Assembly (NCBI GenBank): GCA_964036045.1
Contig: OZ038378.1
Span: forward strand, 74,090,001-74,154,000
Origin: Eutreptiella sp. 'Long Island Sound 2002'
Taxonomy: Eukaryota > Protista > Euglenida
Reading direction: 5' to 3'
Length of the DNA: 64,000 bases
The position numbers were made by a program, and so were the translations under genes. Positions 2,718 through 44,519 of this stretch are shown here, in pieces. The notes below the pieces were generated by a model. The model ran no database searches, was not told where the DNA came from, and was given only the letters and a program-made list of their open reading frames with translations. Position 1 is the stretch's first letter, and each line of letters opens with the position of its first letter.

Positions 2718-2835
2718 GGCGATGATGGTTGGGGTTGTCGTGTGTGGGGCTATCTGGTGTGGGGGTGTGGTTTCTAGAGCTTTGGTGTGTGAGATTATAG
2801 TTTTTGGCGCTACGATGTGTGGGGGTGTGCTCTGC

Positions 2836-3031
2836 GGTTTGCCTCCCGGCAACCGGGTCAGTCATGGGTATCAAACATGCCCTCCATCACCTCACGCCAC
2901 ACCTACCCCCACCACATCACCAGCTACGGTTCCACCAAGGGCAGCCGCTCGGAGACAACGACGCGACCCCGACCTCGACCACACACGGACCCATCCCCAT
3001 GACGTTGCGACTGGTGGGGCTGAAGGGAGGA
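2836..3031 (+). CDS. Ubiquitin-like domain ending in Gly-Gly (copy A)
   Basis: SVMGIKHALHHLTPHLPPPHHQLRFHQGQPLGDND...PMTLRLVGLKGG in ORF 2804..3631 aligns by eye to ubiquitin TIENVKAKI...IPPDQQRLIFAGKQLED...LHLVLRLRGG. Confidence 0.75.
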
Positions 3032-4399
3032 GGCAGCAGGTCACGCAGGGATACCGATGCTGACAGCACCAGCGACCGTGACAGTGACAGCCACAGCCGC
3101 CGGCAAAAGTCTCGGAAGCGCGGCTCCAAGGGCGAACTCACCCAGGCCCTGCGGGCAATGAGGTCCCTTGCGGACTTTGCAGCGGGAATGCGCCGATCCA
3201 TTCAGCAACCACCACAAACTGTGACACCCGAAGCCTCGGCACCACAAAGCATCAGCACAGACAGACACGGAGGCCAGAACCGCGATCCGGCTGAGTCGCA
3301 GCAGGGCGTACGTGAGCCACCGCAAACGCGTACGCGTTATTGCGTGAACATGGACACGCGCCAAGGTGAACGGCAGTTCCTCCTGCACGACCCCGGATAC
3401 CACCCCCAGCCCCGACCCCCCCCTCCAACCCCTATTGCAGAACCTCTGCGGTTTTACCGCAACCCCCAAAGCCCGGAAGTACCTTGCGCAGTCCCGGCCC
3501 TTAAACACGGCCACAGGGACATGACCCGACAGCCCCCCCCACTGCAGGCGGCACCACACATGGAGCCGATGGCGGCACAGCCGGCGCCTTACCACAGTGA
3601 AGCACCCCCCCCCACACCACAGACACAGTAAGGACCACAGACGCTGTACCCAGCAGTGGTAAACAGGCATGGTGGGCACGTAGTTCCAGGGGACAGGCCA
3701 GCGACATGGGCACATTTCAAGGAACAAAACGCCGCCGCCCTGGAAGTCCTCCGCACCGAGACCCGCGCGGACCCGGCCGGGGGCTACTTGTCGACGTGGC
3801 TCTCGTTGGAGAGGGCCCAACCACTGTCGGAGTACCCGCAAGACCCCCGTCACCAACAACCGTACTAGGGTAACTACGCGGCCTACGAAACGGAACCAGA
3901 AATGGGACACCCACAACAGCACCAACAGTTGTACTACGCACCAGACACATCGGCCTTCCATCCCCCCGCACACCCACCCGGCCCCGCCCAGTCCCATGGG
4001 GAAAGGGCGCAACAACACCAAGTGCACGCGGAACAGGCACCGGAGGACAAACTTGAGTTCTCCCGTTCACCGGAGGCTGGGACGTTGTGGCCGCACAACA
4101 AGGGCAGCAAGCACGACCAGGACAGCAGCGATGGAGGAGGCGCCGACCCAAGACCCACAAAGGGGAACCAGGGACGGTCGTCCCCAACATCCCCAGCATC
4201 GCACACAGACCAGCGCGACTCCGCGTCCCCTGACGTGCTCAGGGGGGTATGCGCATGCATGCGCATGAACGGGACAACTGTGCATGAAGGGGAACTTGCG
4301 ACCCTCACCAACCCTTGCCCCACGTGCTTCTCCACAGTGAGCAGCCGATACTGGCGTGAGGCCGGAGCGGACGACCGCGTTGACGATCCACGCCGCATG

Positions 4400-5150
4400 G
4401 ACGACCCGACGGCCGCGAGGGTTAAGAGTGGCCGACCGTAAGGACACGCCCACCGTGGCCTGCCCCAGACCACAATCATGCGCACGAGTGGCACGGGCAG
4501 CACAGGCCTAGACAGACTGGCACAGTGTCTGTGACGCATCATATGCATATGGCCCCGTAACGCGGCCATGCTGTGTGACAAGGACGACTCACATGGACGA
4601 CCCAACGGCCGGGTCACGAACGGCCGGTCGTATGGGCGCGCCCACCGCGGCTTGCACCAGACTGTAGCCACGCCTACGAACGACACAGGCAACACAGGCC
4701 CAGACAGACAGGCACAGCGTCCGGGACACATCATATACATATGGTGCCGAACTGCAGCCATGCGGTGAAGGAAGGACGGCATGCATGGATGACCCGACAG
4801 CCGCGGGGTCACGAACAACCGGTCGCATGGACACGCCCACCGTGGCTTGTACCAGACCGCAGCCACTCCTCCAAATGACATAGGCAGCACACGTCTAGAC
4901 AGACAGACACATCATATAAATATGGCTCCAAACTGCGGAGGCCATGCTGGGAGGCATGGACGGCAAGCACCGACGGCCCGACAGCCGCGGGGCTACAAGC
5001 TGCCGGTCATATGGACATGCCTACCGCGGCCTGCCCCAGACCACAGCCATGCCTACAAGTAACACAGGCAGCGCAGGCCCATATACACAGGCACAACTCC
5101 TCGGACGCACCATATACATATGGCCCCAAGCTGCGCAGGCCATGCTGTGA
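4400..5150 (+). repeat. Four ~190-bp degenerate tandem repeats inside copy A
   Basis: Units start gacgacccgacggcc (~4400), gacgacccaacggcc (~4596), gatgacccgacagcc (~4789) and gacggcccgacagcc (~4971). Each contains (c/t)accg(t/c)ggc(c/t)tg and cat(c)ata(t)...atatgg. Confidence 0.9.
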
Positions 5151-6725
5151 CGCACGAACGGAACACGCCACCACGCCTGCGACTGTGACCAACGAACATG
5201 CAGCTTGTGCACCATCTCTGCCCGTGTGGCGTTCTCAGAAACAGGCAGCCCCCCCCCCCCCGGGACAGCACGTCCCCCCTACGGGAGGGGAACTGCTCTG
5301 GAATCACCCACCACCCCGGCGACGGACACCCTACCCCTCCAACAAACAGCCGATCCACCCTTCCCAAACCAGGGTAACATGTGACCACACCACCGATGGG
5401 GATATCAAAAAAACCCGGGCCCCATTGACACACAGGCTGCAGAGGACGAAATCCCCCCCCACCACAAGGAGATGGTCACGCGACTGGCGAGCGAAATCGA
5501 AACGGCCTGCAACCCCCACTACCCCGTTAAACTATACAAATACGCGACCCAGGCACTCACAAAGGCACTCAACAGCAAGCGACGGGCACCCCCCCCCCCT
5601 AGACCACAACACGCACACACCACGCACGGAATCGGTGTCTACACATGGCACCTCAGAAGTACCATCACCAGAGGAAACCTCACCTCGCGGGATACATCTC
5701 CCAGGCACGCCACGCCCACCCACCCCAGACACATCCGAGCTTACCGTGCAAACACAAAACCACCACTCACGGATAGGACTGAACATGACCCCTGCCATCG
5801 ACGCGGAATGCCCCCGGTGCCACATGGCCGACTTCGTGTACTTCCGCTGCACTACGTCCAAGTACATCGCCATACACCAACCGGAAACCCCGGACATGGT
5901 ACCACGGTGCTTGTACAGCGTAATGTCCCCAAACACCCTGTACCCAAGACAAGGATCCTGGCAAGGAGCCGTGCCTGCAACCACTACACACACCTGCAGG
6001 GCGCCACACCCGCAGATGACGAGCCCACAGCCGACAACGATAGGCACCTCGAACGGGTGGATACACGACGTCACCAGCGATGGGGATGTTGAACCAAATC
6101 CCGGCCCCACCCCATTAGGCCCCTCGGCAAAACGCACACGTTACAACCAAGACACCCCACCCACGTACCGTACACCCAGGATGCTACGCAAACGTACCAC
6201 GGACAACCCGCCGCCTGCAACGTAAACACGGTATACCAAGAACACCGACCAGCAACACAGGTGGGCAACCACCACAAACGAAAAGCGGAAGGCGCACCTG
6301 CCCACCAACCTGCAGCAAAACGACACATGAGCACGACCCACTGGGACTGGGAGCAACACACCCCCGGAACTCAGGAAAACGTACGCCCGAAACGGCCCTA
6401 TGAGGACATCACGGAACATGTCGCGGCCGGTCCACCGCACAAAAAAATCCGCAAAACATAACGTCTACGTACCCGGCCCTACCCCAGACCAACGTGCTGG
6501 GTCCACGACCCGACGCACGATGGAGACACGGCTCCCAACCCGGGACCAACCTCGCCCGCACGAGTAGACCAAGCAACGCAAACCACAGCACTAGGCGACA
6601 CGGGGATAGAGGCTCACGACGCTTCTTCGCCGCCCCTGCGGGGGACACCACTCCCCCAACAGCCCGGCGACAACACTGCCACAAAAACGGGGAACGTCGA
6701 TGCAAGTGAGCAATTCGAAGAGGAC

Positions 6726-6836
6726 TGCCCCATATGCCTGGACCGCCCCGCAAACACAAGCCTAAGTTGTGACCCCGGGCACAGGCTGTGCCAGACCTGC
6801 GCCAACGACCGGAGACTACCGAGATCCCCAGTGTGC
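6726..6836 (+). pseudogene. C3HC4 RING finger (copy A; 7th ligand Cys replaced by Ser)
   Basis: Manual translation: CPICLDRPANTSLSCDPGHRLCQTCANDRRLPRSPVC. Confidence 0.8.
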
Positions 6837-7337
6837 CGCAGCATGCTGGAACCGAGGGTACCCCCCCCACCCCTGGGTGACCCAACATATGCGTACTTTT
6901 ACATACAAATATACAACAACCGGCTACTCACGTACAACTATAGTTTGCCCCCCGATCCGCCAATGCCGCTGGCATACAACATATGTAGCCAAATAACCAG
7001 CACAACAGGCCAACTGTGGGAGGTACACCCGAGGAATGATCTCCCCTACTGCCATATCGCAAGACACAGACTGCATAGCCTCACACACACAAGAGATGGT
7101 TTCCAGATGGCCATATCCATACGGTATGGGCTGTTTTTGGCCCACCCCTTACAGCATGACCTACTCCTAGAGTACGACATCACCGACTTGGTACCACCGG
7201 TCACGGACGTAGACCACCCACGGCATACACACCACAGTATAAACCCACACGCTACCCCAGACGTCACCTATCCACAGCACACCCAATGCGTCCTAGATGC
7301 CACACAGGACGGTGATGTGGAACCGAACCCAGGCCCA

Positions 7338-9960
7338 GACAACAACACCCCACCCCACGGCATGGTACACACCCGGGCGGAAAACTATGAAAGGAATACA
7401 TCCGGACTACATACCGACCATCGCGACCCAAAGGACGTAGAGGAAAGCCCCTTGGGCGTCGAGACCAACCCACACACCCCATTAGAGGACAACACGACAC
7501 GGGAACCCCCCTAGAACGGGGAATCTAACACACACCCCGACCACCACGCAGACGGATTTAGCTACTCCCCCCCACCCCCCCACGAGGACACATAGGCATA
7601 CACGTTCCACGAAGACGGCAATAACCCCCTAGATAACTCACCCATACACACACCAACGGAATACCACTTGATAGAGGAACTAGTAAAACTCAATACGGGA
7701 ACGCCACAGCAACCAATGACAACAATAGAACAGGAAACACTAAAAGCCTCATCGTATATGACGCACAGACCAAACTGAAAGCGTACTTAACAAAACACCC
7801 CGACCGTGCGGTGACCACAGAACACACTCGGCGGCAGACGCAAGAAGGGGTATGGTATGACAAGAAAACCTACCAACTCCCCCTGTTTACGCAACACACG
7901 CTGCGCAACGTCATGAGGGTCATACATGAGGCAGACTCTGACGGTATACACACCGTATCATAGATGGCCGAGGCACAACGGTTCACAGTCTACACAGAAG
8001 CCGACCATCAAGGGAACCCAGACATCCGGAACAAGACATACCTACTCCTACCAGACGCAACCGGGACCCGCCGCAACCATGACCGACCGATGCAACGTGC
8101 AGCCATACAAACGGAATGGGGCGGAAGTGAGGACGAACGAGTCCACCAAATCCTGCCTGCTCTCAGCGACCGAGGGGCCAAGGAACAGATTCTGGCATAC
8201 GAAGCTGACCGACAGGATTCCACAGCACTGCAGACCTACCGCATGGATTGCCTCCATCGTGCTCCACTATGGAAGCTAGCCCGCTACGTCAGAGGAGTAT
8301 ACCAATTCGACGAATTCCCCGCACGCAAGTGGTCCCCGGAACGAAACACCTTAGTCTACCACCTGCAGCCCACACCCATCATGGTCCTTCACCCGGACAA
8401 CACCAACAAGATGGGACACGAGCCCGCACACCAAACTTACACACTCACGAAGGGCACACCCATACAGGTGGGACTGGAGGACCGCAAAGATACACTACAA
8501 CCAGACTCGCCCAAGACTACGGTAGTGGTTGAGTGCCCACCAGAATTGGGCATTAGGACACGAGACGCATTTAGGAAACACATAAACGGACACCAGTCTG
8601 ACGTCGCCTCCACCATAGCAAGCAAGGACCCACACAACACCTTCTGGTGGAAGTGTGCCTCAGAACACACGGCGGGACAAAGTGGGTCGCACGCCTGGAG
8701 ACTACACCTGCCCATGCAACTACTGCCCAGACTGACGCAGGCACTGTAAACAATAAAAAAGGAAGAGGAAAACGGCGGAAACCCCGGACCCTAGTGGCTC
8801 ACTGAAACCGACTACGAAAGCCTATACATCCTGAGACAACAATGCACTGAACATAAAGAAGACAAAATCACATCGGTACAGGAAATCTTAGGCGACATAG
8901 ACAGGGAGTAGCTGGAGCTAGGAAGGAGCATCGCATCATTCCTCAAGGGCTTCCGATCAGTAGACTCCTACCGCCTCCTAATACAGTTTCAGCCAGACGC
9001 AGACCGACGCTTGATTGCCCAACTATTGAAGGGCATGAAAAGCTATGAACTGTTCCACGTAATGACCAACGTCATACTCAACCGCAACAACTGGACACAG
9101 TCTACAAGCCGCTCCAGGAACATCAAGCGGCCGCCCAAACCAACCAGAAGTGACGCCACGACGGTGTTCGTAGGGTGGACACAGCGCGCAGGAGACGACA
9201 CGGCGAAAGTCGTGGCATCCTTCTTTGGATGTTGGAGTAGTTGGAAGCCCGAACCCAACATGTGGAGCGAAGCAGGGTACACCTACGCCTCACTCCAATA
9301 CCAACATGCCACAGCAGTGGCCCTTAGCGCCGGACAGTACATCGGAGTGGCACCCGGTGAATACGTACACATAACACTATGAGACGACAAAACGGACACA
9401 CATGTTACCGAACGCATCGACCAGATGCTCTCGCACAAATTGCCGCACGAGATGGGCGACAACGTAGCATTCCGGAGAGGCATGAAGGCAGGGAAACAAT
9501 TGGGCGCGGACATGATGACAGAACGAGTCATCAGGGAAATCAACAGGGAAAAACAGCTCCTCGCGGAACCCGAACCCATCAACGTGGCGGGCTGGGACGA
9601 GGCCATCATGACAGAACTCGGTCATACTAACGACGACGTGCCACCAACGGACCTCCACCGGCACGTGACCACCATGGACACGGACGGACCCCACGACCAA
9701 CAATCCAACAACACAGACAAACCCGCACCCACACACCCACGACCGCCAAACCAGGCACAGAAAACGAAAGCCCACAACGAAACGCCGCAAAAAACACCCA
9801 CAAAGACGACACCGCCACCCAAAAAAAAAGAAGGCAACACGAACATCCCCACAAACCAACCAGCAAACGGATGGAACGGCTGCCTTCACCGCCAACACCA
9901 AATACAAAGGGAAAAGTAAGGGGCCGCCAAAAAACCCACAGGGCGAAGGAAAGAAGGGAG
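7338..9960 (+). pseudogene. ORF1-like core of copy A with RRM-like domain (~9161-9330) and basic C-terminal tail
   Basis: ORFs 7964..8749, 9011..9382 and 9425..9919 are pieces of one frame conserved in B and C. TVFVGWTQ...VVASFFG...AGYTYASLQY resembles RNP2/RNP1. Confidence 0.65.
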
Positions 9961-10479
9961 GTGCCTTTTCCTCATGCCCTTCATCGCCATAATGGCCCTC
10001 CACCTACTCATGGTGCCCACCACACATACAGAGGGACCAGTGCTCCTGCTCCCTATGATACAGAGAGCACGCAGGAGGGACACCCCACCCCTACGACACC
10101 GGCACGGCAATAAGCGGGACCCAACCCCTCGCAGCTACCGTATGTGGCGGCCCTGCTTGTTACTACTCTATATCGCCTGCTTCTTCCACACCCCGACCGC
10201 CCCTAACACAAGGGTGCCAAGCCGCTACTACCGCACACCGGTATCCACCACTACGGTAACCAGCCCCCACAACACACGATACGACAACAATTGGGTCCTC
10301 CAATGCGGGGACGTTCACCCCAACCCCGGACACCAAAGGATATACCAGCTCCGGCGCGATTGCCGCAACGTGCCGGGACCCCCCGTCCCGCTTCTTGACA
10401 TAGAGGAATACTAACAGCACCTGGTGGTCAACACAAACCGACGGTAAGACACTCGAGATGACACGACCAACGCAGAGGA

Positions 10480-11160
10480 CCAGGACAGGAAACTGGCCGG
10501 CTCGAACATACAAGGCGCACAGGGCTCTGTCACCCTACAGCGCTGGGCCAGTGTCCTCCACCTAATGAGCCAGTGTCGTATCGACTTTTGCGGCATTCAA
10601 GAATAGAACCCGTGCTTCCCTATGCCGGAGGCAGCCACAACAGCATTCAACATTAACTATAAGTGCTAGGCTGCGAACGAGCCACGAGTAGCATTCATCG
10701 TCCGCAACACTGTGGTCTCCCACGTCCTCGAAACGTTATACTCACCTAACGGATCAGCGGGGGCCAGCAGGCTGCAGCTCCCCAATAGCCCCCGCCGGAC
10801 CATAGCGTGCGTGTACTGCAAATTCAGCCGCCAGGACAAACAAGAGGTAGACCTCTTCCTGTAGTCCCTCCAACCATATGACATTATTATGGGGGATTAC
10901 AATGATTACATCTCGTCGTCAAACCCGACACAGCCGTGGCAGGAAGACCTAGCCAACAGCGTGTTCCTCGACCCATTACACGCCAGTAGCTAGCCGCCCG
11001 ACCCCCGGCAATACTACACCCGCATACCAAGGCATGGACGACCACGTCGCCAGGACGCCATATTGGTTAGGCAACAAATACCCAACATACCCTGGACCTA
11101 TTATGACACAACACAAATGCCCATACCAGATCATAGTCTGGTCCCCCTTGGCATCCGCTG
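10480..11160 (+). pseudogene. Apurinic-like endonuclease (EEP) domain, copy A
   Basis: KLAxxNIQG...GIQE, MGDYND, R.DAILVRQ and PDHSLV motifs, interrupted by stops. Confidence 0.85.
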
Positions 11161-11833
11161 GAGGATAGGGGCACCCGACCCACTCCGCAGAAAACCGCAG
11201 CCCACGGTCTCGAAGTTTTGCACCACACACTTCCAACGCTTTGCCAACTCCATATCCACCCTACCCGTAAAGGACACCGACCCACCCCCACACACAGCAC
11301 GGCACATCCTGTCGGCAATCGCACACACGGCACGACCACGGCACTATACACGCACTAGGACGCCAACCACGGCAATCTGCTCGGAAACCTCGGATCCCAG
11401 GGCACGGTTACGCGAATACGGGGAAGCACAGGAGCACCACATACGGAAACAAATCGGCAAACTCCGCCGGGCAGCAGTGCACAGATCCGGATACCTCTAT
11501 AAAATGGTCAAGAGGTGGCGCACCGGACTCATAGCACAAGACACGCCGCGGCCTTCCATAGGAGGAACACAACACATCCTGAACCACTTTGCGGGCGACC
11601 CAACATACGACGATGACACGTGCCAACGACTGATACGAAAACATGTACGCCACCACACATGGAACACCACGACCCCAACATACGAGGAGAACCTGAGGTG
11701 CCTGCTGGCACCAAAGAACAAATCAGCCGGACCCGATGGTGTACCTCCGCACCTGCTCCGGCACCTACCTAACCACATACAGCAACAACTGTACCAGGCA
11801 ATCATCGCAGTCTGAAACGGACAAAACATCCCA

Positions 11834-12973
11834 GTGGCCTGGCTGCAGTCAAGGGTAGTGCTCATTTACAAAAAGAAAGACCCCCAGGACCCACGAAACT
11901 ACAGGCCGATCTACGTTTCCAGAGCCATATATAGCATACTCACACGTCTCCTCCTGACGCGCATATCTAGAGCCATGACCCCGGGACTACTAGACATGCA
12001 ACACGGTGCCATACAGGGCCAAAACACCACGACCCTAGCCACAAGACTACTCAACGACTTACACACACAAGACGGGTACGTGGCCCTCCTCGACGTAGCC
12101 AAAGCTTTCCCCTCGGTCCCTCAACTAATGCTAACTGGGATCGTCAAGGAGGCAGGGGCACCAGAAAACATCATACGGATGCTTGGAGAGATATACCAGC
12201 ACACACCGGCCGTATTGACCGTCCACAGACGGGACCTCCCCATACGTCCCACGAGGGCCATGAATGAGGGGTGCCCCCTCTCCCCAACATTATTTCTCTT
12301 ATACTACGACATAATACTTAGGGAAACCAAAGAGCGTTGCCCGGGAGCCCACCTATACATGTTCGTCGATGACATCGCGGTGCGCGCACCCACGAAGAAA
12401 TCGCTACTTCACACCCTAGACACACTCCACGAAGTGGCATACACAATGGGGCTACGCTTCAATAAGGCCAAAACCGAAGTATACCACTGTGCTAAGGACT
12501 ATAGCCTAGAACCTATCACATGGCAGCACCAATTGATCCCCGTGCGGCCACCTATATTGAGGTACCTGGGTCACGTTCTAGCCCATCCCACACAAGAAGA
12601 CATAGTGTGGGACATGGTGACCGCACAATTGCACCACGTTATAGCGGCTTACAGGACCCTACCGCTTAACACCTACGAAAAGGTTGCCATCATAAACGCC
12701 GTCCTCATCCCTCGATGGACCTACAGGGGGCTATTCTTCGGGAACAGAGCACGGATAGCTCTATGGGACGACATACTCCTACAGTACAACAGGCACACAC
12801 CCGGGATAGAACAACAAATGAACAAGCACCGACTGACTACCAACCTCAGCCACGGGGGACTAGGTCTACGTCAGTTATGGTGGTCCTACATCACCCGGTG
12901 GGTTACACTTGGGCAGCAAGAGGTGCAAAACAAGGGCCCCACACAACATCTCACCGCCACCGAGTATAAATAG
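11834..12973 (+). pseudogene. Non-LTR reverse transcriptase, copy A (largest intact block)
   Basis: VVLIYKKKDPQDPRNYRPI, LLDVAKAFPSV, EGCPLSPTLF, LYMFVDD, GLRFNKAKT, YLGH, HGGLGL. Confidence 0.95.
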
Positions 12974-13254
12974 GTTGATGTTGTCCGAGCCCTAGGGGGC
13001 ACGGTGGGTCAGCGCATATCCCAACCCAGGCAACACCAGCCCCTCTCGGCGGGCCTATACGACTCAGAGAGCTCGGAGGAGGACCAGGAGACACACGCCG
13101 GGAAAACGCGGCCGGCTACCAGCCGTCTGGACTATGGCTGGATAAACCCACCGGACGAGCCAGCCACAGAGGAAACCCACGAGGTCTACTAGACACTACC
13201 GCACCAACAGAAGATCCATGGGATCACTGTACACTACACGGGAGAACCCACCAC

Positions 13255-13680
13255 CACGAGGTGGTATACTGATGGGTCGAGACGACACGGACGAGCGGGA
13301 GGGGGCATATACAACGGAAACTACTGCGCAGCATTTCGGGTGCACGGCCCCCAGCAAGTGTATCGGGCCGAGACAATCGCATGCGCGTTGGCTTCTGAAC
13401 TGGCCAGACCAGGGGACGACATCATACTTGACAACCAAAGTGTGGTTAACGCCACACCTCTAAAACGAAAAGGGGTAGTCAAAGACTAGGACTACCGCGA
13501 CATAGGCTACCACAACACCTCTTCGAAGCAATTGACGATACGCTGGACTCCAGGGCACTGTGACGATACGCTGGACTCCAGGGCACTGTACCGTTGCGCA
13601 AGCCACCACGTATAACGACTACCGGGACATTCAGGGGAACAACCACTCCGATGTCCTAGCCAATATCGGCGACAACCTGC
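13255..13680 (+). pseudogene. RNase H domain, copy A
   Basis: WYTDGSRRHGRAGGGIY, YRAETIA, IILDNQ, IRWTPGH, GNNHSDVLA. Frameshifted by a 28-bp duplication. Confidence 0.85.
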
Positions 13681-31307: not shown

Positions 31308-31520
31308 GTGAGCGGCGCCGGACCCCCGGTTTGCCTCCCAGCAACTGGGTCAGTCAAGGGCATCAAAAATGCCCTCCATCACCTCACGCCTCACCTACCC
31401 CCACCGCAACACCAGCGGCTGTTCTACCACGGGCAGCCGCTCGGAGACAAAGACCCAACCGCAACGACAGCACACGGACCCGTCCACTTGACGTTGCGTT
31501 TGGTGGGACTGAAGGGAGGA
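31308..31520 (+). CDS. Ubiquitin-like domain ending in Gly-Gly (copy C)
   Basis: LIVSGAGPPVCLPATGSVKGIKNALHHLTPHLPPPQHQRLFYHGQPLGDKD...PVHLTLRLVGLKGG in ORF 31281..31835. Confidence 0.8.
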
Positions 31521-33649
31521 GGGAGACGGTCAAGCAGGGACACGGATACCGAAAGCACCAGTGACAACGGCAGTGACAGCCACGGCCGCCGGAAAAAGTC
31601 CCGGAAACGCTGCTCCAAGGGCGAACTCACCCAGGCCTTGCGGGCAATGACGTCCCTTGCAAACTCTGTAGCAGAAATTTGCCGATCAATCCGGCAACCA
31701 CCGCAAACCGGGACACCCGAAGCCCCGCCACCACATGAACCAACGCAAACAGACACGGAGACCAACCCCGCGACCCAGCCCAGCTGCCACATGGCGAGCC
31801 CGAGCCACCACAAGCGCGTAGGCGCTATTGCCTGAACATCGGCACGCGCCACGGTGACCGGCAGGTCATTCTGCATGACCCCGGATATCAACCCCAACCC
31901 CCACCCCCTCCCCCGACACCGGTGGCAGAACTACTGTGGTTCTACCGCAACCGCTATCTCCTGGAAGTCCCCTGCGCGGTACTAGTCCTCCAACACGGCC
32001 ACAGGGGCATGACCCAACAACCCCACCGGACCCCCAGAAGGCGGAACCACACATGGGGCGGACGGCGGCACAGCCGGCACCCTACCACAGTGATGCACCC
32101 CTCCCACCACAGGCATAGTGCAGGCCACAGGCACAGTACAGAGCAGTGGTGGACAGACATGGCCGTCACGTGGTACCAGAGGACAGACCGGGGACATGGG
32201 CACAGTTCAGCGAACGAAATGCCGCCGCACTAGAAATGCTCCGCACTGACACCGGCGCAGACCCGCATGGAGGCTACATGTCGACCTGGCTTTCACGGGA
32301 CACGCCCCTGCCACCGGCAGAGTGCCCTCAGGACCATCGACACCAGCAAACGCACCAAGGTGGCTACCCGGCCTACGACACGCCACCGCTGCCGGGACAC
32401 CCGCGACAGCAACAACAGGTGCACTACACACCTGACGCACCGGGTCTCCGGCCCCCCATCTACCAAACCAACCCCCCCCCCCCCCCCAGCCACGTGCGGA
32501 AAGGGCGCCACCGCACGGAGTCCACGCGGAACAGGAACCGGAACAATCCAACTCGGGACAGATTGGAGTGTTCCCTTTCACCGGAGGTTGGGACGGTGTG
32601 GCCACACAGCCCGGTCAACAGGCACGACCGCCGCGACAGCAGCGATGGAAAAGGCGCCGGTCCAAGACACACAAAGGGGAACTGGGAACGGCCGTCCCCA
32701 ACATCCCCACCGTCGCACCCCCGGGCCAGCGCGCCTCCAACGTGTCCCCTGACGTGCTGAGGGAGGTTTGCGCATGCATGTGCATGAACGGGAGAACACG
32801 TGGACCGGTGCCTCTCTCCACCCACAACCTCACGCCCTCCTCCATAGTGATCATCACCACGGAGAGCCGATACCGGCGTGAGAAACCAAGGTCTGGAGCT
32901 GCCGACCGCGCTCACGACCCGCGACGCACGGACGACACGACATCCGCGCAATTAAGAGCGGCTGGAAACGGGACACATCATATAATCATGGTCTTAAGGA
33001 CACACCTACCGCGGCTTGCCCAGACCGCAGAGGCCATGTCTGCGAGGGACACGCACAGCGATGGGGCAGGCTACCACGCCAGCCGTTGTTCCCACGGCCG
33101 ACAGCCCCCGGCATTCACCCCGACACGCCGAGGCAGAACAGGCCGAGACAGGCAGGTACAGCGTCTGGGACGCATCATATAACTATGGCCTCAAGGACAC
33201 ACCCCTTGCGGTTGGCCACCAACCGTGGAAGCCATGCCCGCGTGAGGTACGGGCGGAGACGGGGCACGCCACCACGCCAGCCGGTGTGGAAACGGCCGAC
33301 GGCACCGCAGCAAGACAGGACCAGACAAGCAGACACAACCACCATGGGGTGTGCTGTCGCCCTAAGGCCACAGCGGCCTGGTGTTCGCAGGGCACTGCAC
33401 ATTGCAACGAACGCAAACCAGACGGCACTGTGACTGTGATCCACGGACCTGTGATTTGTGCACCACCTGCACACGTATGGGATTGTCAGCAACAGGCCGA
33501 GCCCCCCACCCCCCCCAAGGACAACACGCCCCCCTATGGGAGGGGGACCGCGCTGGAATAACCCACTGCCCCGCCGAAGGACACCGTACCCCCCCAACAA
33601 ACAGCAAATCAACCCTGCACGAGATGGGACGACACGCGACCACACCACC

Positions 33650-35615
33650 GATGGAGACATCGAGAAAAATCCGGGGCCCCATGACACAGGGTTGACACAG
33701 AATGAAATCCCGCCTCACCACAAGGCGATGGTCACGCGAGTGGCGAGTGAAATAGAGATGGCCTCCAACCCCCACTATCCCGTTAAACTATACAAATATG
33801 TGACCCAGGCACTCACGGAGGCACTCAAAAGCAGGCAACGGGCTTCCACCCCCCCTCCAGAAAACAACACACGCACACCACGCGCAAAATCGGCGTCCAC
33901 ATATGGCACCTCAGAAATTCCATCACCAGAGGTCACTTCATCACGCGGGATGCAACTCCCAGGCACACTACACTCACCCACCCCAGACACATCGGACTCC
34001 ACTGTGAGAACACAAAAGCATAGGTCACCGATGGGACTAAACATGACCACCGCCCTCGACCTGTTATGCCCCTGATGCCACATGGCTGATTTTGTCTACT
34101 CCCGCTGCACCACTTGTAAATACTTCGCCATACACCAACCGTACACCTCAAACATGGTGGCCCGCCGCTTGTACAAAGTAATGCCCCCGGTCACCTTGTA
34201 CCCAAGACAAGGATCCTGGCAAGGTGCCGATCCTACAACCACCACACACGCCTGCACGGCGTCACGGCCGCAAGCATCAATTACACCACCGACATCGCGA
34301 GACAACACGAACGGATGGGTACACAACGTCACCAACGACGGAGGCGTCGAGTCCAATCCTGGGCCCATTCCGCCGGGACCCTCGGCAAAACGCACACGCT
34401 ACAACCAAGACACCCCACCCACGTACAACACGCCCAGGATGTTACACAAGCGTACCATGGACAACCCAATGCTGCCTGAACAAAAACCACGACGCACACA
34501 AGTTGTGGACATAGTATACCAAGAGCACCACACACCAGCCCGGGTGTATAACCACCGCAAACGCAAAGCAGACGGCGTACCGGACTACCCACCTACGACA
34601 AAACGTCACATTAACGCGACCCACTGGGGTGCGCAACACACCCCCGGAGCACCGGTAAACATACGCCCGAAAAGGCCCTATGAGGACACCTTGGAACCCG
34701 CCACGACGGAACCACCACACAAAAAGATCCGCAAAACACAACGGCTTCGTAACCGCCCCTATCCAAGGCCGACAAGCTGGGACCACGACCCGAAACAGGA
34801 CGGGGACACAAAACCAAACCTCGGACTAACCCCACCCACACGAGTGGACCAAGCGACACAAACAACACCACTAAGAGATACGGGGATCCAGACACACAAC
34901 GTCCCACCTCCACCACCCCTACGGGCGGCACCTCCCCCCCAACAACCGAACAACCACACTGCCTCAAAAACGGGAAACGTGGACACAAGGGAGCAGCCCC
35001 GAGAGGACTGCCCCATATGTATCGACCACCCTGCAGACACAAGCCTAAGTTGCGGCCCAGGCAAGTCCCAACGACACCCGAATGGTGAGGTGCCCATTGT
35101 GCCGCCGCATGCTGGAACCAAGAGTACCCCCCCCCCCCCCGCCCCTGGACGACCCAACATACGAATACTGCTACGTACAAATATACAACAACCAACTACT
35201 TACGTACACGGACTATAGTTCGTCCCCCATCCCTCCCCTGCCGCCGGCATACAACGTATGGATGCAAGTCCCCAGCACGACCGGTCAACTGTGGGAGATA
35301 CACCTGAGCAATCACCCCCCCTACTACGCTGTTGCACGACACAAGCTGCATGGCCTTACGGACACAATATATGGTTTCCATATGGCCATATCACTACGGT
35401 ACCGGGTGAGAGTTTTAGCCCACCCCTTACAGCATGACCTACTCGTGGAATACGACATCACCGACTGGGTACCTGCACCTACGGGCTGAGACAACCTACG
35501 ACACACGCACCACACCGTTGATCTGCACGCCATACCGGACAAAAACCACCCACAACACACCGAATGGGTCCCAAATGCCACACACGATGGTGATTCGGAA
35601 CCAAATCCGGGCCCA
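33650..35615 (+). other. Four 2A/StopGo-like motifs in copy C (fifth removed by a deletion)
   Basis: 33650-33679 DGDIEKNPGP; 34337-34366 DGGVESNPGP; 34799-34828 DGDTKPNLGL; 35586-35615 DGDSEPNPGP. Confidence 0.85.
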
Positions 35616-38600
35616 GACAACAACACACCACCCCACGGAATGGTACGAACCCTGGTAGAAAACTATGAACGACATACGTCCGGACTGCACACCTACAATC
35701 ACCGGCCAGTGGATTTAGAGGAAACCCCCCCCCGGGCACCCACGAGGCAAACCCACACCCCCCACTAGAGGACAACATGGCACAAGAACCTCCTCAGAAC
35801 GGGGAGCCTAACACTCCCTCCGACCACCACGCATAGGGGTTTAACTACTCCCTCCCGACCCCCAAGGAGGACACACAGGCATGCACATTCCACGAAGACG
35901 ACAACGACCCCCTGGATAAACTCCCGATACATACACCAACGGAGCACCGGCTAATAGAAGAACTGGTGAAACTCAATACGGGAACACCACAGCAACTAAT
36001 GACAACGACATAACAGGAAACATTGAAAGCATCGCACATATACGACACACAAACCATGCTAAAAGTGCACTTAACCCAAAACCCAAACCGCGCGGTAACA
36101 ACGGAACACATCCGGCGGCAGACGCAAGACGGGGCATGGTATGACAGGAACACCTACCAACTACCCCTGTTTGCGCAACGCACGTTGCGCAACCTCATGA
36201 CGGTGATACACGAGGCAGACTGTGACAGCATACACACGGTACCGGAGATGGCCCAGGCAGAACGGTACACAATCCACACACAAGCCGACCATCAGGGGAA
36301 CCCAGACATCCGGAACAAAACATACCTACTCCCACCGGAACCCGCCGCAACCACGACCAACAGATGCACCGCGCGGCCATACAGACGGAATGGGGCGGAA
36401 GTGAGGACAAACACGTCGACCAAATCCCGCATGTCCTCAGCGACCCAGAGGCAAAGAAGCTGCTTTTGGCGTACGAAGCAGATCGACAAGATACCACAGC
36501 CCTGCAGACTTACCGCATTGATTGCCTGCATCGTGCAGCGCTACTGAAGCTAGCCGGCTACGTAAGGGGAGTTTATCAATTCGATAAATTGCCCATACGC
36601 AAGTGGTCCCCAGAACAAGAAAACTTAGTCGATCACCTACAGCCCAAACCCATCATGGTCCTGCACTTGGACAACACCATCAAGATGGGCCATGAGCCCG
36701 CACACAAAACCTACGCACTCACGAAGGGCACGCCAATACAAGTGGGACTGGAAGACCGCACGGATGCACTAAACCAGAAACGTTCAAAACTACGGTAATG
36801 GTTGAGTGCCCACCGGTCACGGGCATTAGGACACGAGACGCTTTTCTGAAACGGATAAATGGACACCAGTCTGACGTCGCTTCCACCCTAGCAAGGAAGG
36901 ACCCACACAACACTTTCCGGTGGAAGTGTGCATCCGAACACACCGCGGGACAAAGTGGATCACACGCCTGGAGACTACACCTTCCCATGTAGCTACTGCC
37001 CAAGCTGACGCAAGCACTACGAACAATCAAACAAGAGGAGGAAAACGCCGGAAACCCCGGACCCTACTTGCTCACTGAAACCGACTACGAAAGCCTGTAC
37101 ATCCTACGGCAACAGTACCCTGAACATAAGGAAGACGAAATCACGTTGGTACAGGAAATCCTGGACGACATAGACAGGGAACAACTGGAGCTACGAAGGA
37201 GCATCGCCTCCTTTCTAAAAGGCTCCCGACCAGCCGACTCCTACCGCTTACTAATACAGTTTCACCCAGACGCAGACTGACGCTTGATTGCCCAACTACT
37301 GAAGGGCATGAAAAGCTACGAACCGGTTCACGTGACAACAAACGTCATATTGAACCGAAACAACCGAACACAGTCAACAAGTCGCTTCCGGGTCATCCAA
37401 CGGCCACCCAAACCAACCAGATACGACGCCACGACGGTGTTCTTAGGGTGCACACAGGGCGCAGGAGACAATACGGCGAAGGTCGTAGCATCCTTCTTTG
37501 GATGCTGTAGCAGCTGGAAACCCGAACCCAACATGTGGAGCGACGCGGGCTGCACCCATGCCTCGCTCCAGTACCAACATGCCACAACGGTGGCCCTCAG
37601 CACCGGGCAATACATAGGAGTAGCACCCGCGAATACATACACCTAACACTAGGAGACAATAAGACGGACACACAGTTAACCGAACGCATCGACCAGATGC
37701 TCTCACAAAATATGCCGCAAGAAACGGGCAACGACGCGGCATTCCGGAGACGCATGAAGGCAGGAAAACAGCTGGGCGCTGGCATGATGACAGAGCGGGT
37801 CATCCGGGAAATCAACAAAGAAAAGTAGTTGCTCGCAGAACCCGAACCCATCAAGGTGGCAAACTGGGACAAGTCCATCATGAACGAACTCGGCCATACC
37901 AATGACGACATGACGCCAACAGACCTCCAACCGCAACTGGACACGATGGACACGGATGCAAACGTCGACAAACAAACCAACGACAAAGGCCTTCCCATAT
38001 CTGCACACCCACGAACGACACCCCAGGCGCAGAAAACAAAGGCACACAACAAAACACCACAAAAAAGCCCCACAAGGACGACACCACCACCAAAAAAGAC
38101 GAAGGCAACACCGGCATCACCACAGCCCAACCAGAAAACGGACGGGATGGGCGCTTTCACCGCCGACACCAAACACAAAGGGAAAGGGAAGGGGCTGTCA
38201 AAAAACCCACAAGGCAAAGGGAAAAAGTGAGGTGCCTTTTCCTCATGCCCTTCATAGCCGTAATGGCCCTCCTCCTCCTCTTGGTCCCCACCACACATAT
38301 AGAAGGACCAGTACTCCTTCTCCTTATGATTCGGAGAGTGCGCAGGCGTTATGCCTTGCCACCCCGATACGGGCACAAGAACAAGCAGGACCCTGCCCCG
38401 CACAAGGCTCCGTTACCCTACAGCGCCGGGCCAGTGTGCTCCACCTGATCAGCCAATGTCGTATCGAGCTCTGCGGCATTCAAGAATACAACCTGTATTT
38501 CCCGTTGCCGGAGGCAGCCACTACCGCACTCAACGACGACTACAAGTGCTACGCTGCACCAGGGAACGAACCACGGGTAGCATTCATCATCTGCAACACT

Positions 38601-41600
38601 GTGGTCCCTCATGTCATCGAAACGTTATACTCGCCTAAGGGTTTATCGGGGGCCATCAGGTTGCAGCTCCCCAATAGCCCCCGCCGGACCATGTGTTTAC
38701 TCCTAATTCAGCCGTCAGGACAAGAGGTAGATCTCTTTCTGCAATCCCTCCAGTCATACGACGACATAATGGGGGATTACAATGACGACGTATGGTCGTC
38801 AAACCCGACACGCCCTTGGCAACACGACCTAGCCAGCAGCGTGTTTCTCGATCTGTTACATGCAAGTAGTCAACCGCCGACCCCCGGCACTACGACACAC
38901 GCATACCAAGGCATGGACGACCACGTGGCTTGGACGCCATATTGATGAGGCAACAGATACCCAACATACATTGGACCTACTGTGCCACTATACAAATGCC
39001 CATATCGGACCACACGTTGGTTTTACTTGGCATCCGCTGGAGGATAGGAGCCCCCGACCCACGCCGTAGGAAACCGCGGCCGTGAGCCTCGAGGTGGTAC
39101 ACCACGCACTTCTAGCGCTTCACCAACTCAATGTCCACCCTGCCGGTGAAGGATACCGACCCACCCTTACACACGGCACGGCGCATCCTGTCGGCTATCG
39201 CCCACCGGCACGGCCGCGTCAACCCACACGCACCAAGACGCCAGCCACAGCAACCCGGACGGAAACCCTGGACCCCACGGCACGGTTACGGGAGTTTGGG
39301 GAAACACAAGAACACCACATACGGAAATCGGAAAACTCCGCCGAGCGGCGGTGCACAGATCCGGTTACTTCTACAAAATGGTCAAGAGATGGCGCACCGG
39401 ACTCATTGCGCAAGACACACCGCAAGCCCCGATAGGAGGGACACCACACGTCCTGAACCACTTTGCTAGCGACCCAACATACGACGAAGATGCGAGCCAA
39501 CAACTGATACGCAAACATGTACGACACCACACATGGAACACATCAACCCCAACATATGAGGAATACCTAAAGTGCCTGCGGGCACCGAAGAAAAAATCAG
39601 CCGGACCCGATGGGATACCAACGCACCTGCTCCGGCACTTACCGAACCACATACAAAAACAACTGTACCAAGCAATCATTGCGGTCTGCAACGGACAGAA
39701 CATTCCCGTCGCCTGGCTGCGGTCAAGGGTAGTGCTCATATGTAAAAAGAAGGACCCACAGGACCCACGAAACCACATGCCACTTTGTGTATCCACCGCC
39801 GTATATAGCATCCTCACACGCCTCCTCTTGATGCGTATATCTAGGGCCATGACCCCAGGACTACTTGACATACAACACGAACACCACGACCCCAACCACA
39901 AAGCTACTCAACGACCTACACACACAAGACGGGTACGTGGTCCTCCTAGACGTAGCCAAGGCATTCCCCTCGGTCCCCCGACCAATGCTGACTGGGATCG
40001 TCAGAGAAGCAGAGAAGCAGGGGCACCACAAAACATGATACGAATGCTGGGTGAAATATACCAGCACACACCGGCTGTAATGTCCCTCCATGGACGGGAC
40101 CTCCACATACCTCCCACCATGGGCATGAAAGAATGGTGCCCCCTCTCTCCAACACTATTCCTCTTATACTACGACATACTCCTTAGGCAAACCAAAGAAC
40201 CAAGCCCGGGAGCCCACCTTTACGTGTTCGTCGATGACATCGCGGTACGCGCACCCACGAGGGAATCACTATTACACACCCTAGACGCAATCCACGAAGT
40301 GGCATACACAATGGGGCTTTGCTTCAACAAGGACAAAACCGAAGTATACCACTGGGCCAAGGACTATAACCTGGAGCCCATCACATGGCAGCACCAGCTT
40401 ATCCCGGTGCGGCCACACATATTGACGTACTTGGGCCACATACCAGCCCACCCCACACAAGAAGATACACCGTGGGACATGGGAACCACATAGTTGCAAC
40501 ACGACATAGCGGCGTACAGAACCCTACCGCTCAACGCCTACGAGAAAGTAGCCATCATCAATGCTGTCCTCATCCCGCAATGGACTTACAGGGGCCTGTT
40601 CCTCGCAAACAGATCCCGGATGGCGTTATGGGACGACATACTCCTTCATTATATCAGGGACAAATGAACAAACATAGACTGACAACCAACCGAAGTCACG
40701 GGGGGTTGGGCCTACGACAGCTATGGTGGTCCTACATCAACCGGTGGGTCACGCTAGGGCAGCAAGAACTACAGAACAACGGCCCCACACGACATCTCAC
40801 CGCGACCCAATATAAATATATCGACGCCGTCCGCGCCCTAGGGGGCACGGTGGGCCAGCACAAATCCCAACCTAGACAGCACTGCCCTTTGTCGGCGGGC
40901 CTATACGACTCGGAGAGCTCGGAGGAAGACCAGGAAACAAATGGGGGGAAACATGGCCGGGCACCAACCGTCTAGATTATGGTTAGATGAACCCGCCGGA
41001 CGAACCAACCCCAGAGGAAACTCTTGAGGTTTCCCAGGCACTACCGCACCAACGGACGGTCCACGGGATCACCATACATTACACAAGAGAACCGGCTACC
41101 AAAAGGTGGTATACAGACGGATTGACACGACACGGAAGAGGAGGAGGGGGCATATACAATGGAAACTACCGCGCAGCATTCCGTGTGCACGGGCTCCAAC
41201 AGGTGTACCGTGCCGAGACAATCGCCTGCGCGCTGGCCTCTGAACTGGCCAGCCCAGGGGATGAAATCATGCTCGACCACCAAGGCGTGGTGAAAGCCAC
41301 TCCTATAAAACGTAAAGGGGTAGTCAAAGACCCGGACAACCATGACATAGGTTACCACAACGCCTCCTGGAAACGACTCACAATACGATGGACTCCGGGA
41401 TACCGTACCCTAGAACAAGCCACCAGGTATGGCGACTACAAGGATATATAGGGGAACAACCACTCCGATGTCCTTGCCAATATGGGCGACAACCTGCCAT
41501 TGGACAAATAATGCCCACGCCTGCAAAGGCATGGATTATGCAAGTACGTAGACAAAAACATACCCCGGAAGTATACTCGGTGAGCTAGCTCCCCATGAAA

Positions 41601-42699
41601 CATTACAGACGAAACGCGTGGACCCCATGGCTCTGGGGACAGGTAAGGTGGTGGGAAACAGGTGCCCCTTGGGAGAGGTCCCCAACCTTATGCTCCAAAT
41701 GTGGCCAACATCACGGAGCGTCAGTGCACTCAGGACCGGCGTAGTGCCCCGCCTGGGGCGAATTCTGGGATCTGTGGCGCAGGAGCTTGACTGACTGGAC
41801 CCAACACGCCTGCCAATGGCAGAAAACGGCCACCAGCCTTGACCTCTGGCTCTGTGCCAGACTACTCATCCCGCTGTCCCTCGTCAACGCCATACCCACC
41901 ACGGAGCGACATAAACTACGAGCACAGGTAGGGCTCTTTCAGGTGCGCCTGATTCAGGCTGTCCAAACCCTAAGACAGAAACTCGCCGACCCCACACCAC
42001 ATCAGCCGCCATCACCCCTATGGTTGACTAAGTTTGTTGCGCATACACCGCCCCCACGGGAAACGGCGCAAAACTTATGCAACCACGTCGGAGCGCCAAT
42101 GCGGAGCGGCATGAAACGAAAACGTAGGAATGAGCCTGCGACAGCGGCACCCGTAGACCCCGACCTATGGATTCAGGATGCACACACTGCAAACGACGAC
42201 GAGGCGGTGGTATGGGTGGTGAGAATGCAGGCCACCAACACGACCGGTGAAGAACAAGCCCAGAAGCGCCGACGCCTCGATGTTGACACACAGCAGTAGG
42301 AACATTACCAAACCGCCTTAGACAGGTTCGCGCAGGAGCACGCGCAGCGCGCCTACGACACATACCACATCGCACACGCATCAGAGGTAACACAGCGGCA
42401 CCTACGGAAACTGCACGCATTATACTCCAACACACTAACAACCCTATGAAGTCTCCAATTTTCCGGAGACCCCCGGAGACCTCAATTTCCCCCCATTTTT
42501 CCACTCCGGAGACCGGAGACTGAATTTTTGTAAAGAAAAGTGCCGTTTTTCTTTAATTTTTCCGACCATTTTTCCATCATTTTTCTCCGAACGTCCCGTT
42601 TTTCATCCATTTTTCCATCCTCTTTTCCAGCCATTTTGATAATGTTGTCCTTTGGTTTTGCTTTTGGTTCTTTTGTACCATTCCACCTCTGCTTCAGAT

Positions 42700-43442
42700 T
42701 TTTCACACACGCAGCATATTGGCGGTTGCTGTTGCTCTTTGTTGTGGAGCATGCCCATGAAGTGTTTGACCTGCTTGACAAGGTTCAGGTATCTGTGGCG
42801 TCCACTTTCTGTGGAAATGGGGACTTGCGCCGCCCAAAGCCAACTATGCATCGTGTGTTTAATAGGTTCCATAAATTGCATTGCACCCTGCAACAGATTC
42901 TCGACAGTAAACAGCTTCGTCCCTTGACGGAGAAACGTTTGCAGCGCAAGAAGCAGAATGGTAGTGCATTGTACCATGCTGACACAATGCGTGCACGCCT
43001 CCTTGAGGTCTTGGCCGCTGCCCGGGACAAGCTATGGAAATATGTCGGCAAGCACATGGAGCTTGCCAAGCAGGCCAGAATTTTGGACGCAACACAAATG
43101 GCCGCTCTGCCTGGTGAAATTGCAGCGTTCCCTCTCATCTTCTCTACCCAGGTTCAACACACATTGCTTGGAAATGGGGAATGGAAAGTGTATCGTGATT
43201 CCGTTACACCCTCCACCCCACAATTTGACGTGCTACAGTGGTGGGAAGGCGTGGCTGTGCGCCTACCCACAATGTACCGCATTGCACGGTCCATCCTAGC
43301 CATTCCCCACACTTCTTGTGATGTAGAACGCTCGTTTTCAGTTTGGAAGCGTGTTCGTTCCGACAAGCAACAGAGTATGGCGGAGGGAACACACAAGGCC
43401 TATGTCTCCTTTTGTTTCATTGGTGTAGTTCCACCACCATGA
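42700..43442 (+). pseudogene. hAT transposase C-terminal fragment with dimerisation domain
   Basis: FDVLQWWEGVAVRLPTMYRIARSILAIPHTSCDVERSFS in ORF 42540..43442 matches the WW...P.L...A...L.IP.TS...ER.FS signature. Confidence 0.9.
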
Positions 43443-43589
43443 GCAAGTACAAATTGTGAGTGGTACACGAGATGGCAAAACGATTCTTCGCTTTGAATGC
43501 ACCGCCTACTGAATGCTTGTGTTGCAATCATGTGTGTCGTCAAAGAAGTAACAGTGGCGAGCAAGCGTGCTCTGGCATGCCATACCCCC

Positions 43590-43720
43590 GCATTTCCCCC
43601 CATTTCCCCCCCGTTTTTCCCCGTTTTCCCCCGTTTTTCCCCGTTTTCCCCCATTTTCCCCCATTTTCCCCCATTTTCCCCCATTTTTCCCATTTTTCTC
43701 ATTTTTCTCATTTTTCCGTG
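43590..43720. repeat. CCCC(A/G)TTTT(C) tandem array in the hAT right subterminal region
   Basis: About 12 units of a 10-11-mer, directly visible. Confidence 0.9.
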
Positions 43721-44519
43721 GCCCAAAAAAGACTTGGAGACTCCGGGGTGGGAGACTTCCAAGGCCTGCACTAACTGCCAAAACAGAATATCACCTGCTC
43801 GTGACAAAACTGATGGAAGAGCAAATGGCAGCGCAGCGACTGCACAACACACATACAAACATGTGCCTGCTACGCCGCCAATGGTATGAACAAGCAAAAC
43901 GCGACACAGCGACGTGGTACGTGGACGCAAAGACCTCACTGCTGTCCTACACAAGATACGAGGAGATGTGCACAGAAACCAACAAGCTGCTGGCCCACCA
44001 CTTAGGGCAGGCACACTACATGTGGCGTCAACAGGAACACATCGTTAACTTGACACAAGGGTTCAAGGACAACTGCAAACAGAAAACAACACAATACTGG
44101 GATGCGTCCAGACAAGCACGGCAGACAATATACCTGATACGGAAACGACCACGGGAACAATGGGACCCCACCTTGTGGGAAGTCCCATTGCAACCCCTAC
44201 CAAAACGACACAAAACGCACTGGGATCCAAATGAGTGGGAAATCCCGTTGACATGACCACAACCACGTCAACAGGAAACCATGGGGGCCCAGCCGTGAGC
44301 TGAAGCCCGTATGCGCACCTTGGCCCTGCCGAAATCTGTACTTCCTCTACACTTGGCCCACAGCGGCCCATGGCACATTACGAACTAGCCTATTTGATAA
44401 AGAAAAAACCCTGCGCAGCGGAGAGTTGCAACAATGCTGCTGATGGGCCATAACACCGTTAGTGTCGAAGAGGAAGCATCCCTGCACATGCGGGGGGGGG
44501 GGGGGGGGGGCAACAAATG

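Follow-up and report, generated by a model that had tools for sequence, protein, structure and literature searches.

A 14-kb euglenid LINE with four in-frame 2A-like sites in its first open reading frame

The 64,000-nucleotide stretch analyzed here (the window; Eutreptiella sp. 'Long Island Sound 2002', assembly GCA_964036045.1, contig OZ038378.1, positions 74,090,001 to 74,154,000) holds three same-strand copies, A, B and C, of a long interspersed nuclear element (LINE) of the APE-reverse transcriptase (RT)-RNase H type, all of them decayed, whose first open reading frame (ORF1) carries four motifs of the 2A, or StopGo, kind. In a self-comparison of the window their main blocks are 73-83% identical, and because of this identity, a poly(A) tail of its own on each copy and differing flanks, the three are separate insertions. 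All three follow one another head to tail, on the same strand, in a span of 42 kb (2835-44408). The family has an APE endonuclease upstream of a non-LTR (non-long terminal repeat) RT, 3' poly(A) tails in 3/3 copies, 5' truncation in A and B, and a target-site duplication (TSD) in C, and it is a real, new form of 2A-bearing APE LINE; no TSD was found for copies A and B, both 5'-truncated. Coordinates are collected in Table 1, where the motifs, located by six-frame translation, are given by the position of the octamer.

Copy C is the full-length one. Its TSD matches at 17/17 positions, and its span of 14.9 kb includes a 1.33-kb hAT insertion and is reduced by a 0.39-kb deletion, with a junction near 38399, through which the fifth motif (site 5) was lost. 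Since the 17-bp repeats flank this copy, the element measures ~13.9 kb once corrected, bearing out the predicted length of ~14 kb, and starts ~1.8 kb upstream of a ubiquitin-like domain (Ubl); copy A is without these ~1.8 kb. The hAT fragment carries terminal inverted repeats, and copy B contains a 210-bp internal inversion (20899-21110) in module 4.

Sites 1-4 occur at equivalent places in 3/3 copies and site 5 in 2/3, such that the original prediction of five motifs shared by three copies stands for the first four and fails for the fifth in copy C. The strict pattern (D/G/C/N)(V/I)ExNPGP gave 5 matches in six frames and a relaxed pattern, written after the sites had been seen, gave 11, each against a mean of 0.0 in 60 Markov simulations. 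None of the window copies keeps sites 1-4 in one open frame. Outside the window, the evidence on copies was drawn from predicted proteins and contigs, and among 330 database proteins, most covering other regions, five carry all four sites in one open frame (P0095, P0099, P0107, P0110 and P0112) and five more have three of the four in frame; P0112 is a natural 2,194-residue open frame that runs from the Ubl through all four sites to the region of the RNA-recognition motif (RRM) fold. The main ORF1 cluster has 15 of its 36 members among the matches listed, and contigs from two labelled organisms cover the family, their summed depth not being taken as copy number. With orthology assigned by eye, the exact core is present in 11/12 database copies at site 1, 14/20 at site 2 and 13/17 at site 4, while the V/I of position 13 (p13) is replaced at site 3 by Thr in 13/13 database and 3/3 window copies. 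In predicted models, the 2A sites fall at the edges of folded modules. One further NPGP, the sixth (A 8780, B 22735, C 37053), was ruled out as a 2A, as it lacks a D-x-E core and lies inside a folded core; relatives read GSGPW, VGPF, TPGP or SPGP at this position.

The original prediction had one polyprotein running into the APE-RT region, which is not what the ORF1/ORF2 border shows. The ORF1 stop position is TGA in B (23909) and C (38228), following GKGKK, and GGA in A, and ORF2 starts 14 nt past it in the -1 frame, with ATG in A and C and TTG in B. Six of eight database proteins with an upstream anchor end exactly at GKGKK, and variation in the tail affects 20/41 ORF1 third positions vs 10/40 and 10/41 in the other phases; on these observations and the TGA codons, a single ORF1-ORF2 polyprotein was rejected. 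Apparent run-ons (A, B, P0174, P0202) come after indels within or close to an A-rich run (9820-9835, with counterparts in B and C), itself a candidate low-level frameshift site. ORF1 ends at TGA and the start of ORF2, 14 nt on, is in a different frame, which places site 5 in ORF2, outside the ORF1 polyprotein; the arrangement is 4+1, not five sites in one polyprotein that closes with APE-RT.

Judged by their substitutions, sites 1-4 and the modules are under purifying selection. Compared with a younger subfamily, the last 10 residues of the sites are identical at 97/110 positions vs 208/440 in ungapped flanks (Fisher p 5e-16), the flank value being lowered by indels (BLAST identity of the region is 57-60%), and in the 17-codon windows of sites 1-4 the differences are distributed 19/28/59 over codon positions 1/2/3 (p 2e-6; pairs not independent). 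Ratios of nonsynonymous to synonymous substitution (dN/dS), which between copies include neutral decay after insertion, are for A-B/A-C 0.34/0.43 in module 2, 0.42/0.31 in module 3, 0.36/0.33 in module 4, 0.20/0.22 in the core of module 5 and 0.18/0.16 in RT, and for modules 2-4 of the B-C pair 0.6-0.7; across the copies, the ORF1 core ranges over 0.2-0.33, and RT and RNase H over 0.16-0.26. By codon position, the APE region differs at 16/13/37 sites in 144 codons and the Ubl of A vs C at 13/5/23 in 78 codons. A site-4-like motif is kept in relatives with only 32-48% ORF1 identity (P0212, P0272, P0285 and P0297) and also in P0298 (59%). Two of these diverged relatives have features of their own: P0212 contains two 2As 29 residues apart, and P0285 a canonical WLRNLCGDGDIESNPGP ahead of ORF1-like sequence.

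In P0315, P0321, P0322 and P0323 the open frame reaches 400-540 residues beyond the Ubl on its upstream side, which puts ORF1 at ~2,850 residues, in line with the ~2,860 codons of copy C; intact stretches are found in P0112, P0110, P0322 and P0315. StopGo at all four sites would yield the predicted products P1 (~1,340 residues; variable region, Ubl and repeats), P2 (229 residues; CxxC-x9-CxxC), P3 (153 residues; basic, resembling a nuclear localization signal, with KR clusters), P4 (259 residues; RING and a small alpha/beta domain) and P5 (874 residues; triple RRM-like). Of the predicted modules, RING, RRM-like folds, APE and RT held up, whereas the Ubl is weak but recurrent in Pfam (E 0.002-0.09 in 18/27 homologues, with a diglycine end) and RNase H is weak (E 0.024). 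The predicted RING structure fits RING domains, with a root-mean-square deviation of 1.8 A to cIAP2; for the small alpha/beta domain behind it, fold search lists were filled by RING matches, and for modules 2-3 the predicted-structure confidence (pLDDT) is mostly <50. Pfam gave no RRM match in the last ORF1 product, but the model of P0117 matches Prp24 (Foldseek E 2.9e-5) and U2AF65 (1.5e-4), with VIA Z scores of 6-7, and on this model ORF1 has, in the manner of LINEs, an RRM-like, putatively RNA-binding protein. The best ORF1 relatives are unnamed fragments resembling the same element lineage, and the ESM Atlas returned only leads under 0.9.

The N-terminal region of ORF1 (equivalent to 29642-30900) is a variable mosaic. 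In-frame, degenerate chlorophyll a/b-binding protein fragments lie above the Pfam cut-off in two upstream homologues (P0318, P0327) and weakly in two more (P0321, P0322), apparently captured from host mRNA as far as such matches tell. A conserved stretch upstream of the Ubl (~30700-31100; P0306-P0329), amid TAVRSPAPRP repeats, reads IILLLLHNGDGGVEPCSPP in many copies; Leu-rich, with DGGVEP and no NPGP, it is possibly a dead 2A.

ORF2 opens with a leader of ~120 residues containing two hydrophobic stretches (dN/dS 0.31-0.34). At site 5, the E of p14 and the P of p19 are both replaced by His in A, B, P0048 and contigs. In contigs aligned at 80% likeness, the codons for WVLQCGDVHPNPGH vary at 8 places, of which 7 are synonymous third positions and one is a low-share Val-to-Ala change; the final His codon has no variant at a 4% threshold, in contigs that drop rare variants. 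By its codons, site 5 is a maintained, non-canonical variant conserved family-wide, not decay. The best PDB matches of the RT are L1 ORF2p and R2, with profile scores that do not separate L1 (99.8 bits) from R2Bm (97.5). In a quick tree of 46 unnamed RTs, without named references and leaving out P0088 as too short, the family forms its own long branch (Shimodaira-Hasegawa-like approximate likelihood-ratio support, SH-aLRT, 100) with no supported sister; P0022, P0063, P0067 and P0073 represent further RT families of the same lineage at 32-66% identity. The Ingi/L1Tc clade has a single ORF without ORF1 and an unspliced transcript, from which this family departs by its separate long ORF1 and the spliced leader at the 5' end. 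An RT scan of viral contigs gave no match, and in a metagenome scan the best 80 of 467 matches were <=33% identical, the 2A core being present in 0 of those 80 on either strand.

At the 5' end of copy C stands the euglenid spliced leader: 25/28 letters agree, ungapped, with the published 28-nt sequence, the single match in the window. As the leader lies inside the TSDs, it belonged to the copied RNA and was not the target, and the insertion, with its target-site duplication, comprised a single unit that runs from the spliced leader to the poly(A). We infer that a capped mRNA of 14 kb, trans-spliced (or leader-bearing), served as template. The leader is also translated at the protein start in 3/27 upstream homologues (P0306, P0319, P0329), followed in each by a different sequence; it may derive from trans-splicing of element RNA, from template switching to host mRNAs or from inheritance. 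Elements of the CRE/SLACS type insert into spliced-leader RNA genes and carry a restriction-like endonuclease; the present element does not fit this type, since the leader is inside the TSDs, the right flank is not leader and the endonuclease is APE. The leader is reported to be identical in Eutreptiella and Euglena gracilis (PMC3621762), and together with the chlorophyll a/b-binding fragments it marks the host as a photosynthetic euglenid. L1Tc/ingi elements are likewise euglenozoan LINEs with a 2A, but their RNAs in trypanosomes are described as unspliced and without leader (Heras et al. 2007, PMC1874656), whereas full-length copy C starts with it.

Table 1. Positions of features in the window, by element copy
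Feature	Position	Strand	Remarks
Copy A	2835..15284	+	5'-truncated at Ubl; poly(A) tail
Copy B	18844..29169 (start approximate)	+	5'-truncated; poly(A) tail
Copy C	29538..44408	+	full-length LINE; frameshifted, decayed
Left TSD, copy C	29521..29537	.	17 bp; identical to 44409-44425
Right TSD, copy C	44409..44425	.	17 bp; directly 3' of poly(A) tail
Euglenid spliced-leader sequence, 5' end of copy C	29539..29566	+	inside TSDs, one base from left repeat
ORF1, copy C	29642..38230	+	first in-frame ATG (likely start) to TGA; ~2,860 codons; broken in copy C
Ubl, copy C	31302..31520	+	ends LRLVGLKGG; Pfam PF00240 weak; copy A ~2835-3050
2A site 1, copy A	5400..5423	+	1-nt deletion splits motif across two frames
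2A site 1, copy B	19326..19349	+	DIDKNPGP
2A site 1, copy C	33656..33679	+	DIEKNPGP
2A site 2, copy A	6085..6108	+	GWIHDVTSDG-DVEPNPGP
2A site 2, copy B	20020..20043	+	DVELNPGP
2A site 2, copy C	34343..34366	+	GVESNPGP
2A site 3, copy A	6525..6548	+	DTAPNPGP; DTEPNPGP in most database copies
2A site 3, copy B	20482..20505	+	ETDPNPGP
2A site 3, copy C	34805..34828	+	DTKPNLGL, decayed
RING finger, start of module 4, copy A	6720..6842	+	Pfam zf-C3HC4_3 E 1.6e-4
2A site 4, copy A	7314..7337	+	DVEPNPGP
2A site 4, copy B	21284..21307	+	DVEPNLGP
2A site 4, copy C	35592..35615	+	DSEPNPGP
Three RRM/ferredoxin-like domains (predicted), copy A	8520..9382 (approximate)	+	AlphaFold2 model of P0117
ORF1/ORF2 junction, copy A	9957..9976	+	ORF1 stop position, 14-nt spacer, ORF2 ATG 9974
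ORF2, copy A	9974..15174	+	leader, site 5, APE, RT, RNase H, C-terminal region; stops and frameshifts
Site 5, copy A	10310..10333	+	WVLQCG-DVHPNPGH; in ORF2, ~55 codons upstream of APE domain
Site 5, copy B	24262..24285	+	DVHPNPGH
APE endonuclease, matched part, copy B	24618..25091	+	PF03372 E 7.5e-7
Reverse transcriptase domain, copy A	11870..12577	+	PF00078 E 4e-24
hAT DNA-transposon fragment in ORF2, copy C	42440..43768	+	PF05699 E 5.5e-13

Around the LINE copies, the window contains other interspersed repeats (1163-2819 vs 17155-17550; 640-1113 vs 46740-47220; 17928-18698 vs 47286-47458 and 50284-50893), one of them with an AAC/AAT microsatellite and none with notable Pfam matches. Pfam searches of 103 ORFs outside the elements gave no convincing host gene, and Rfam gave 0 matches in the window and around the leader.

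Published 2As provide the standard for these sites. The StopGo core is (D/G/C/N)(V/I)ExNPGP, with an upstream motif 4 that reads WV(R/K)DLTx[D/E]G; a tested example of this 'chimeric class A/B' type skipped almost 100%, changes to characteristic upstream residues usually abolish activity, and active p14=H variants and partial p19 tolerance are known (Li et al. 2026, PMC12846837). Site 2 (WLRDVTSDG-DVEPNPGP) and site 4 (WVPDATQDG-DVEPNPGP) have the core and, in the register of motif 4, its W, D, T and DG; site 1 (LLRDRTVDG-DIEKNPGP) fits at the core with Trp absent (Leu-rich in the young subfamily), and site 3 (WVHDPTQDG-DTEPNPGP) departs at the core while keeping W, D, T, DGD, E and NPGP in 2A register. 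The Trp of sites 2-4 stands 17 residues from the final Pro, as in motif 4. Sites 1, 2 and 4 share with that motif D-x-T-x-D-G upstream of D(V/I)ExNPGP; the differences are a residue other than Leu in DLT (all four), Thr at p13 (site 3) and the missing Trp (site 1). Site 2 had been called iflavirus-like, a label better given as motif 4, common to many virus groups (Li et al. 2026). In layout, the LINE sites are near-identical to viral 2As found in nature, CWQKDPTQDGDVEQNPGP and GWVPDLTQCGDVESNPGP among them (PMC11512398 Table 1); some such sequences are active and some terminate (Luke et al. 2024, PMC11512398).

Multi-2A picornaviruses (aalivirus, DERSV and WCP; PMC11512398) have serial W-x-x-D-x-T-x-D-G-D-V-E-x-NPGP sites that, as here, separate modules of 50-250 residues in one frame, and the iflavirus- and totivirus-like multi-2A polyproteins reported in bioRxiv 2026.09.24.754024 show the same serial likeness; the present element differs in being a cellular retrotransposon with the non-viral modules Ubl, RING and RRM-like. 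Among APE-type non-LTR elements, L1Tc, Ingi, CR1, L2, Crack and Rex1 have one 2A each (Odon et al., PMC3708506), and share with this family APE-RT and, like site 5, a 2A-like motif in the first ~120 residues of ORF2, upstream of APE. However, these are single sites in elements mostly without ORF1, the sole ORF1 case being one inactive site (PMC3708506), in contrast to an ORF1 of ~2,850 residues with four in-frame sites and a site 5 ending in His. ORF1p-like proteins of ticks and a limpet have one 2A upstream of an RRM-containing ORF1p, and Cordylochernes has one between ORF1p and ORF2p (bioRxiv 2026.06.17.732966), each with a single site and, unlike here, no series of accessory modules. Rao et al. 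(2025, PMC12338488) give a maximum of three 2As for a eukaryotic gene, and no Euglenida rows were found in their table. The accessible text of bioRxiv 2026.06.17.732966 and 2026.09.24.754024 mentions no multi-2A retroelement, and that of PMC8623073 and bioRxiv 2026.05.21.726589 has no LINE with this layout. The published literature searched, with Repbase, Dfam and most subscription journals outside the search, yielded no LINE that carries four 2As in frame; to date, such an arrangement has been described in RNA viruses and not in retrotransposons.

From conservation and frame we consider it likely that serial StopGo at the ORF1 sites frees an RNA-binding ORF1p from accessory proteins on one leader-capped mRNA, ORF2 being translated separately. 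By this scheme, the four in-frame 2A-type signals would let the ribosome release up to five proteins; P5 would be freed as the RNA-binding ORF1p, P1-P4 would become separate accessory factors, with the ubiquitin pathways of the host as a possible target, and ORF2 would likely be made by reinitiation at the ATG 14 nt past the ORF1 stop. The central idea of the original prediction, serial 2A splitting of one frame, is partly supported: the frame check proposed with it holds for sites 1-4, where P0112 contradicts a spread over different frames in intact copies, and fails for site 5. Expectations differ by site: skipping is very probable at site 2, probable at site 4 and somewhat favored at site 1, whereas site 3 is doubtful, its chances a little short of even, and site 5 would sooner be silent than active.

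Several observations weigh against this scheme. None of the four sites keeps the Leu of DLT (R, V, P, A instead), site 3 has the invariant Thr noted above at its V/I position, and DTEPNPGP is absent from the searched supplements of Li et al. and Rao et al. A close viral look-alike, WVHDLTTDGDVESNPGP, terminated without restart (PMC11512398), and elements with the E-to-H change of site 5 had very low activity (Odon et al. 2013, PMC3708506). Retroelement 2As are many, and mostly weak, mid-range or protein-reducing (bioRxiv 2026.06.17.732966, 2026.09.24.754024); highly active ones made up 7.4% in one screen, and in bioRxiv 2026.06.17.732966 most tested ORF1p 2As lowered protein rather than skipped. 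Within the element itself, the dN/dS of module 1 is ~0.72, indicating weak selection, and in B, C, P0174 and P0202 the -1 frame has no stop between the A-rich run and the ORF2 ATG, which makes a minor -1 frameshift fusion possible.

Some of this evidence would also fit an unlikely alternative in which the motifs are mainly translational brakes, acting by stalling, drop-off or termination without restart, with a falling gradient of products and limited ORF1 and ORF2 output. With several viral 2As of the W-x-x-DLT-x-DG type, the upstream product alone was made (PMC11512398), protein levels fell with 70% of the ORF1p and 59% of the ORF2p 2A-like peptides tested (bioRxiv 2026.06.17.732966), and sites 3 and 5 are conserved although non-canonical. 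Against braking, the RRM-like product and ORF2 come last, where four strong brakes would be expected to starve the retrotransposition proteins; the family is also high-copy, and its sites stand at module borders. Nuclear-encoded polyproteins cut by proteases exist in Euglena, and it is conceivable, if quite improbable, that only sites 2 and 4, perhaps 1, skip while sites 3 and 5 are linear motifs or points of post-translational cleavage, ORF1 then giving two or three products. The non-canonical cores of sites 3 and 5 would suit such partial skipping, as would the LRLVGLKGG end of the Ubl, at whose diglycine a host deubiquitinase may cut; yet the 2A register in which site 3 keeps its W, D, T, DGD, E and NPGP would be needless for a protease site. 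Least probable is that a viral 2A was captured, or a 2A duplicated, and that the motifs are its inactive remnants in one long ORF1 protein: many retroelement 2A-like sequences are inactive (PMC3708506), and sites 1 and 2 agree in third-position letters at 14/17 codons in C and 12/17 in B (~5 expected), which hints that 2A units were duplicated or underwent gene conversion, but motif residues are conserved well above their flanks, with synonymous variation, and the motif persists in relatives at 32-48% identity.

With serial StopGo at the ORF1 sites as the preferred reading, a fuller statement may be offered tentatively, as somewhat more apt to fail than to hold: that this is a new euglenid LINE lineage with 2A plug-in joints, making five ORF1 proteins by serial StopGo from one spliced-leader-capped 14-kb mRNA, among them Ubl/RING factors plus captured host sequence, and with two new functional 2A variants (DTEPNPGP and DVHPNPG-H). 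The usual view of LINEs is of one or two proteins per element, and how they express extra functions from a single capped mRNA is an open question. If the four StopGo sites work, this family would be a retrotransposon carrying accessory genes by an RNA-virus expression strategy, and the first with a picornavirus-style accessory polyprotein; its ubiquitin-system modules (Ubl, RING) would be candidate anti-silencing factors. The variants that natural selection has kept here (Thr at p13, His at p14 and p19, and a residue other than Leu upstream) bear directly on current StopGo models, and for a full-length LINE that starts with the spliced leader one may ask by what means a promoter is retained.

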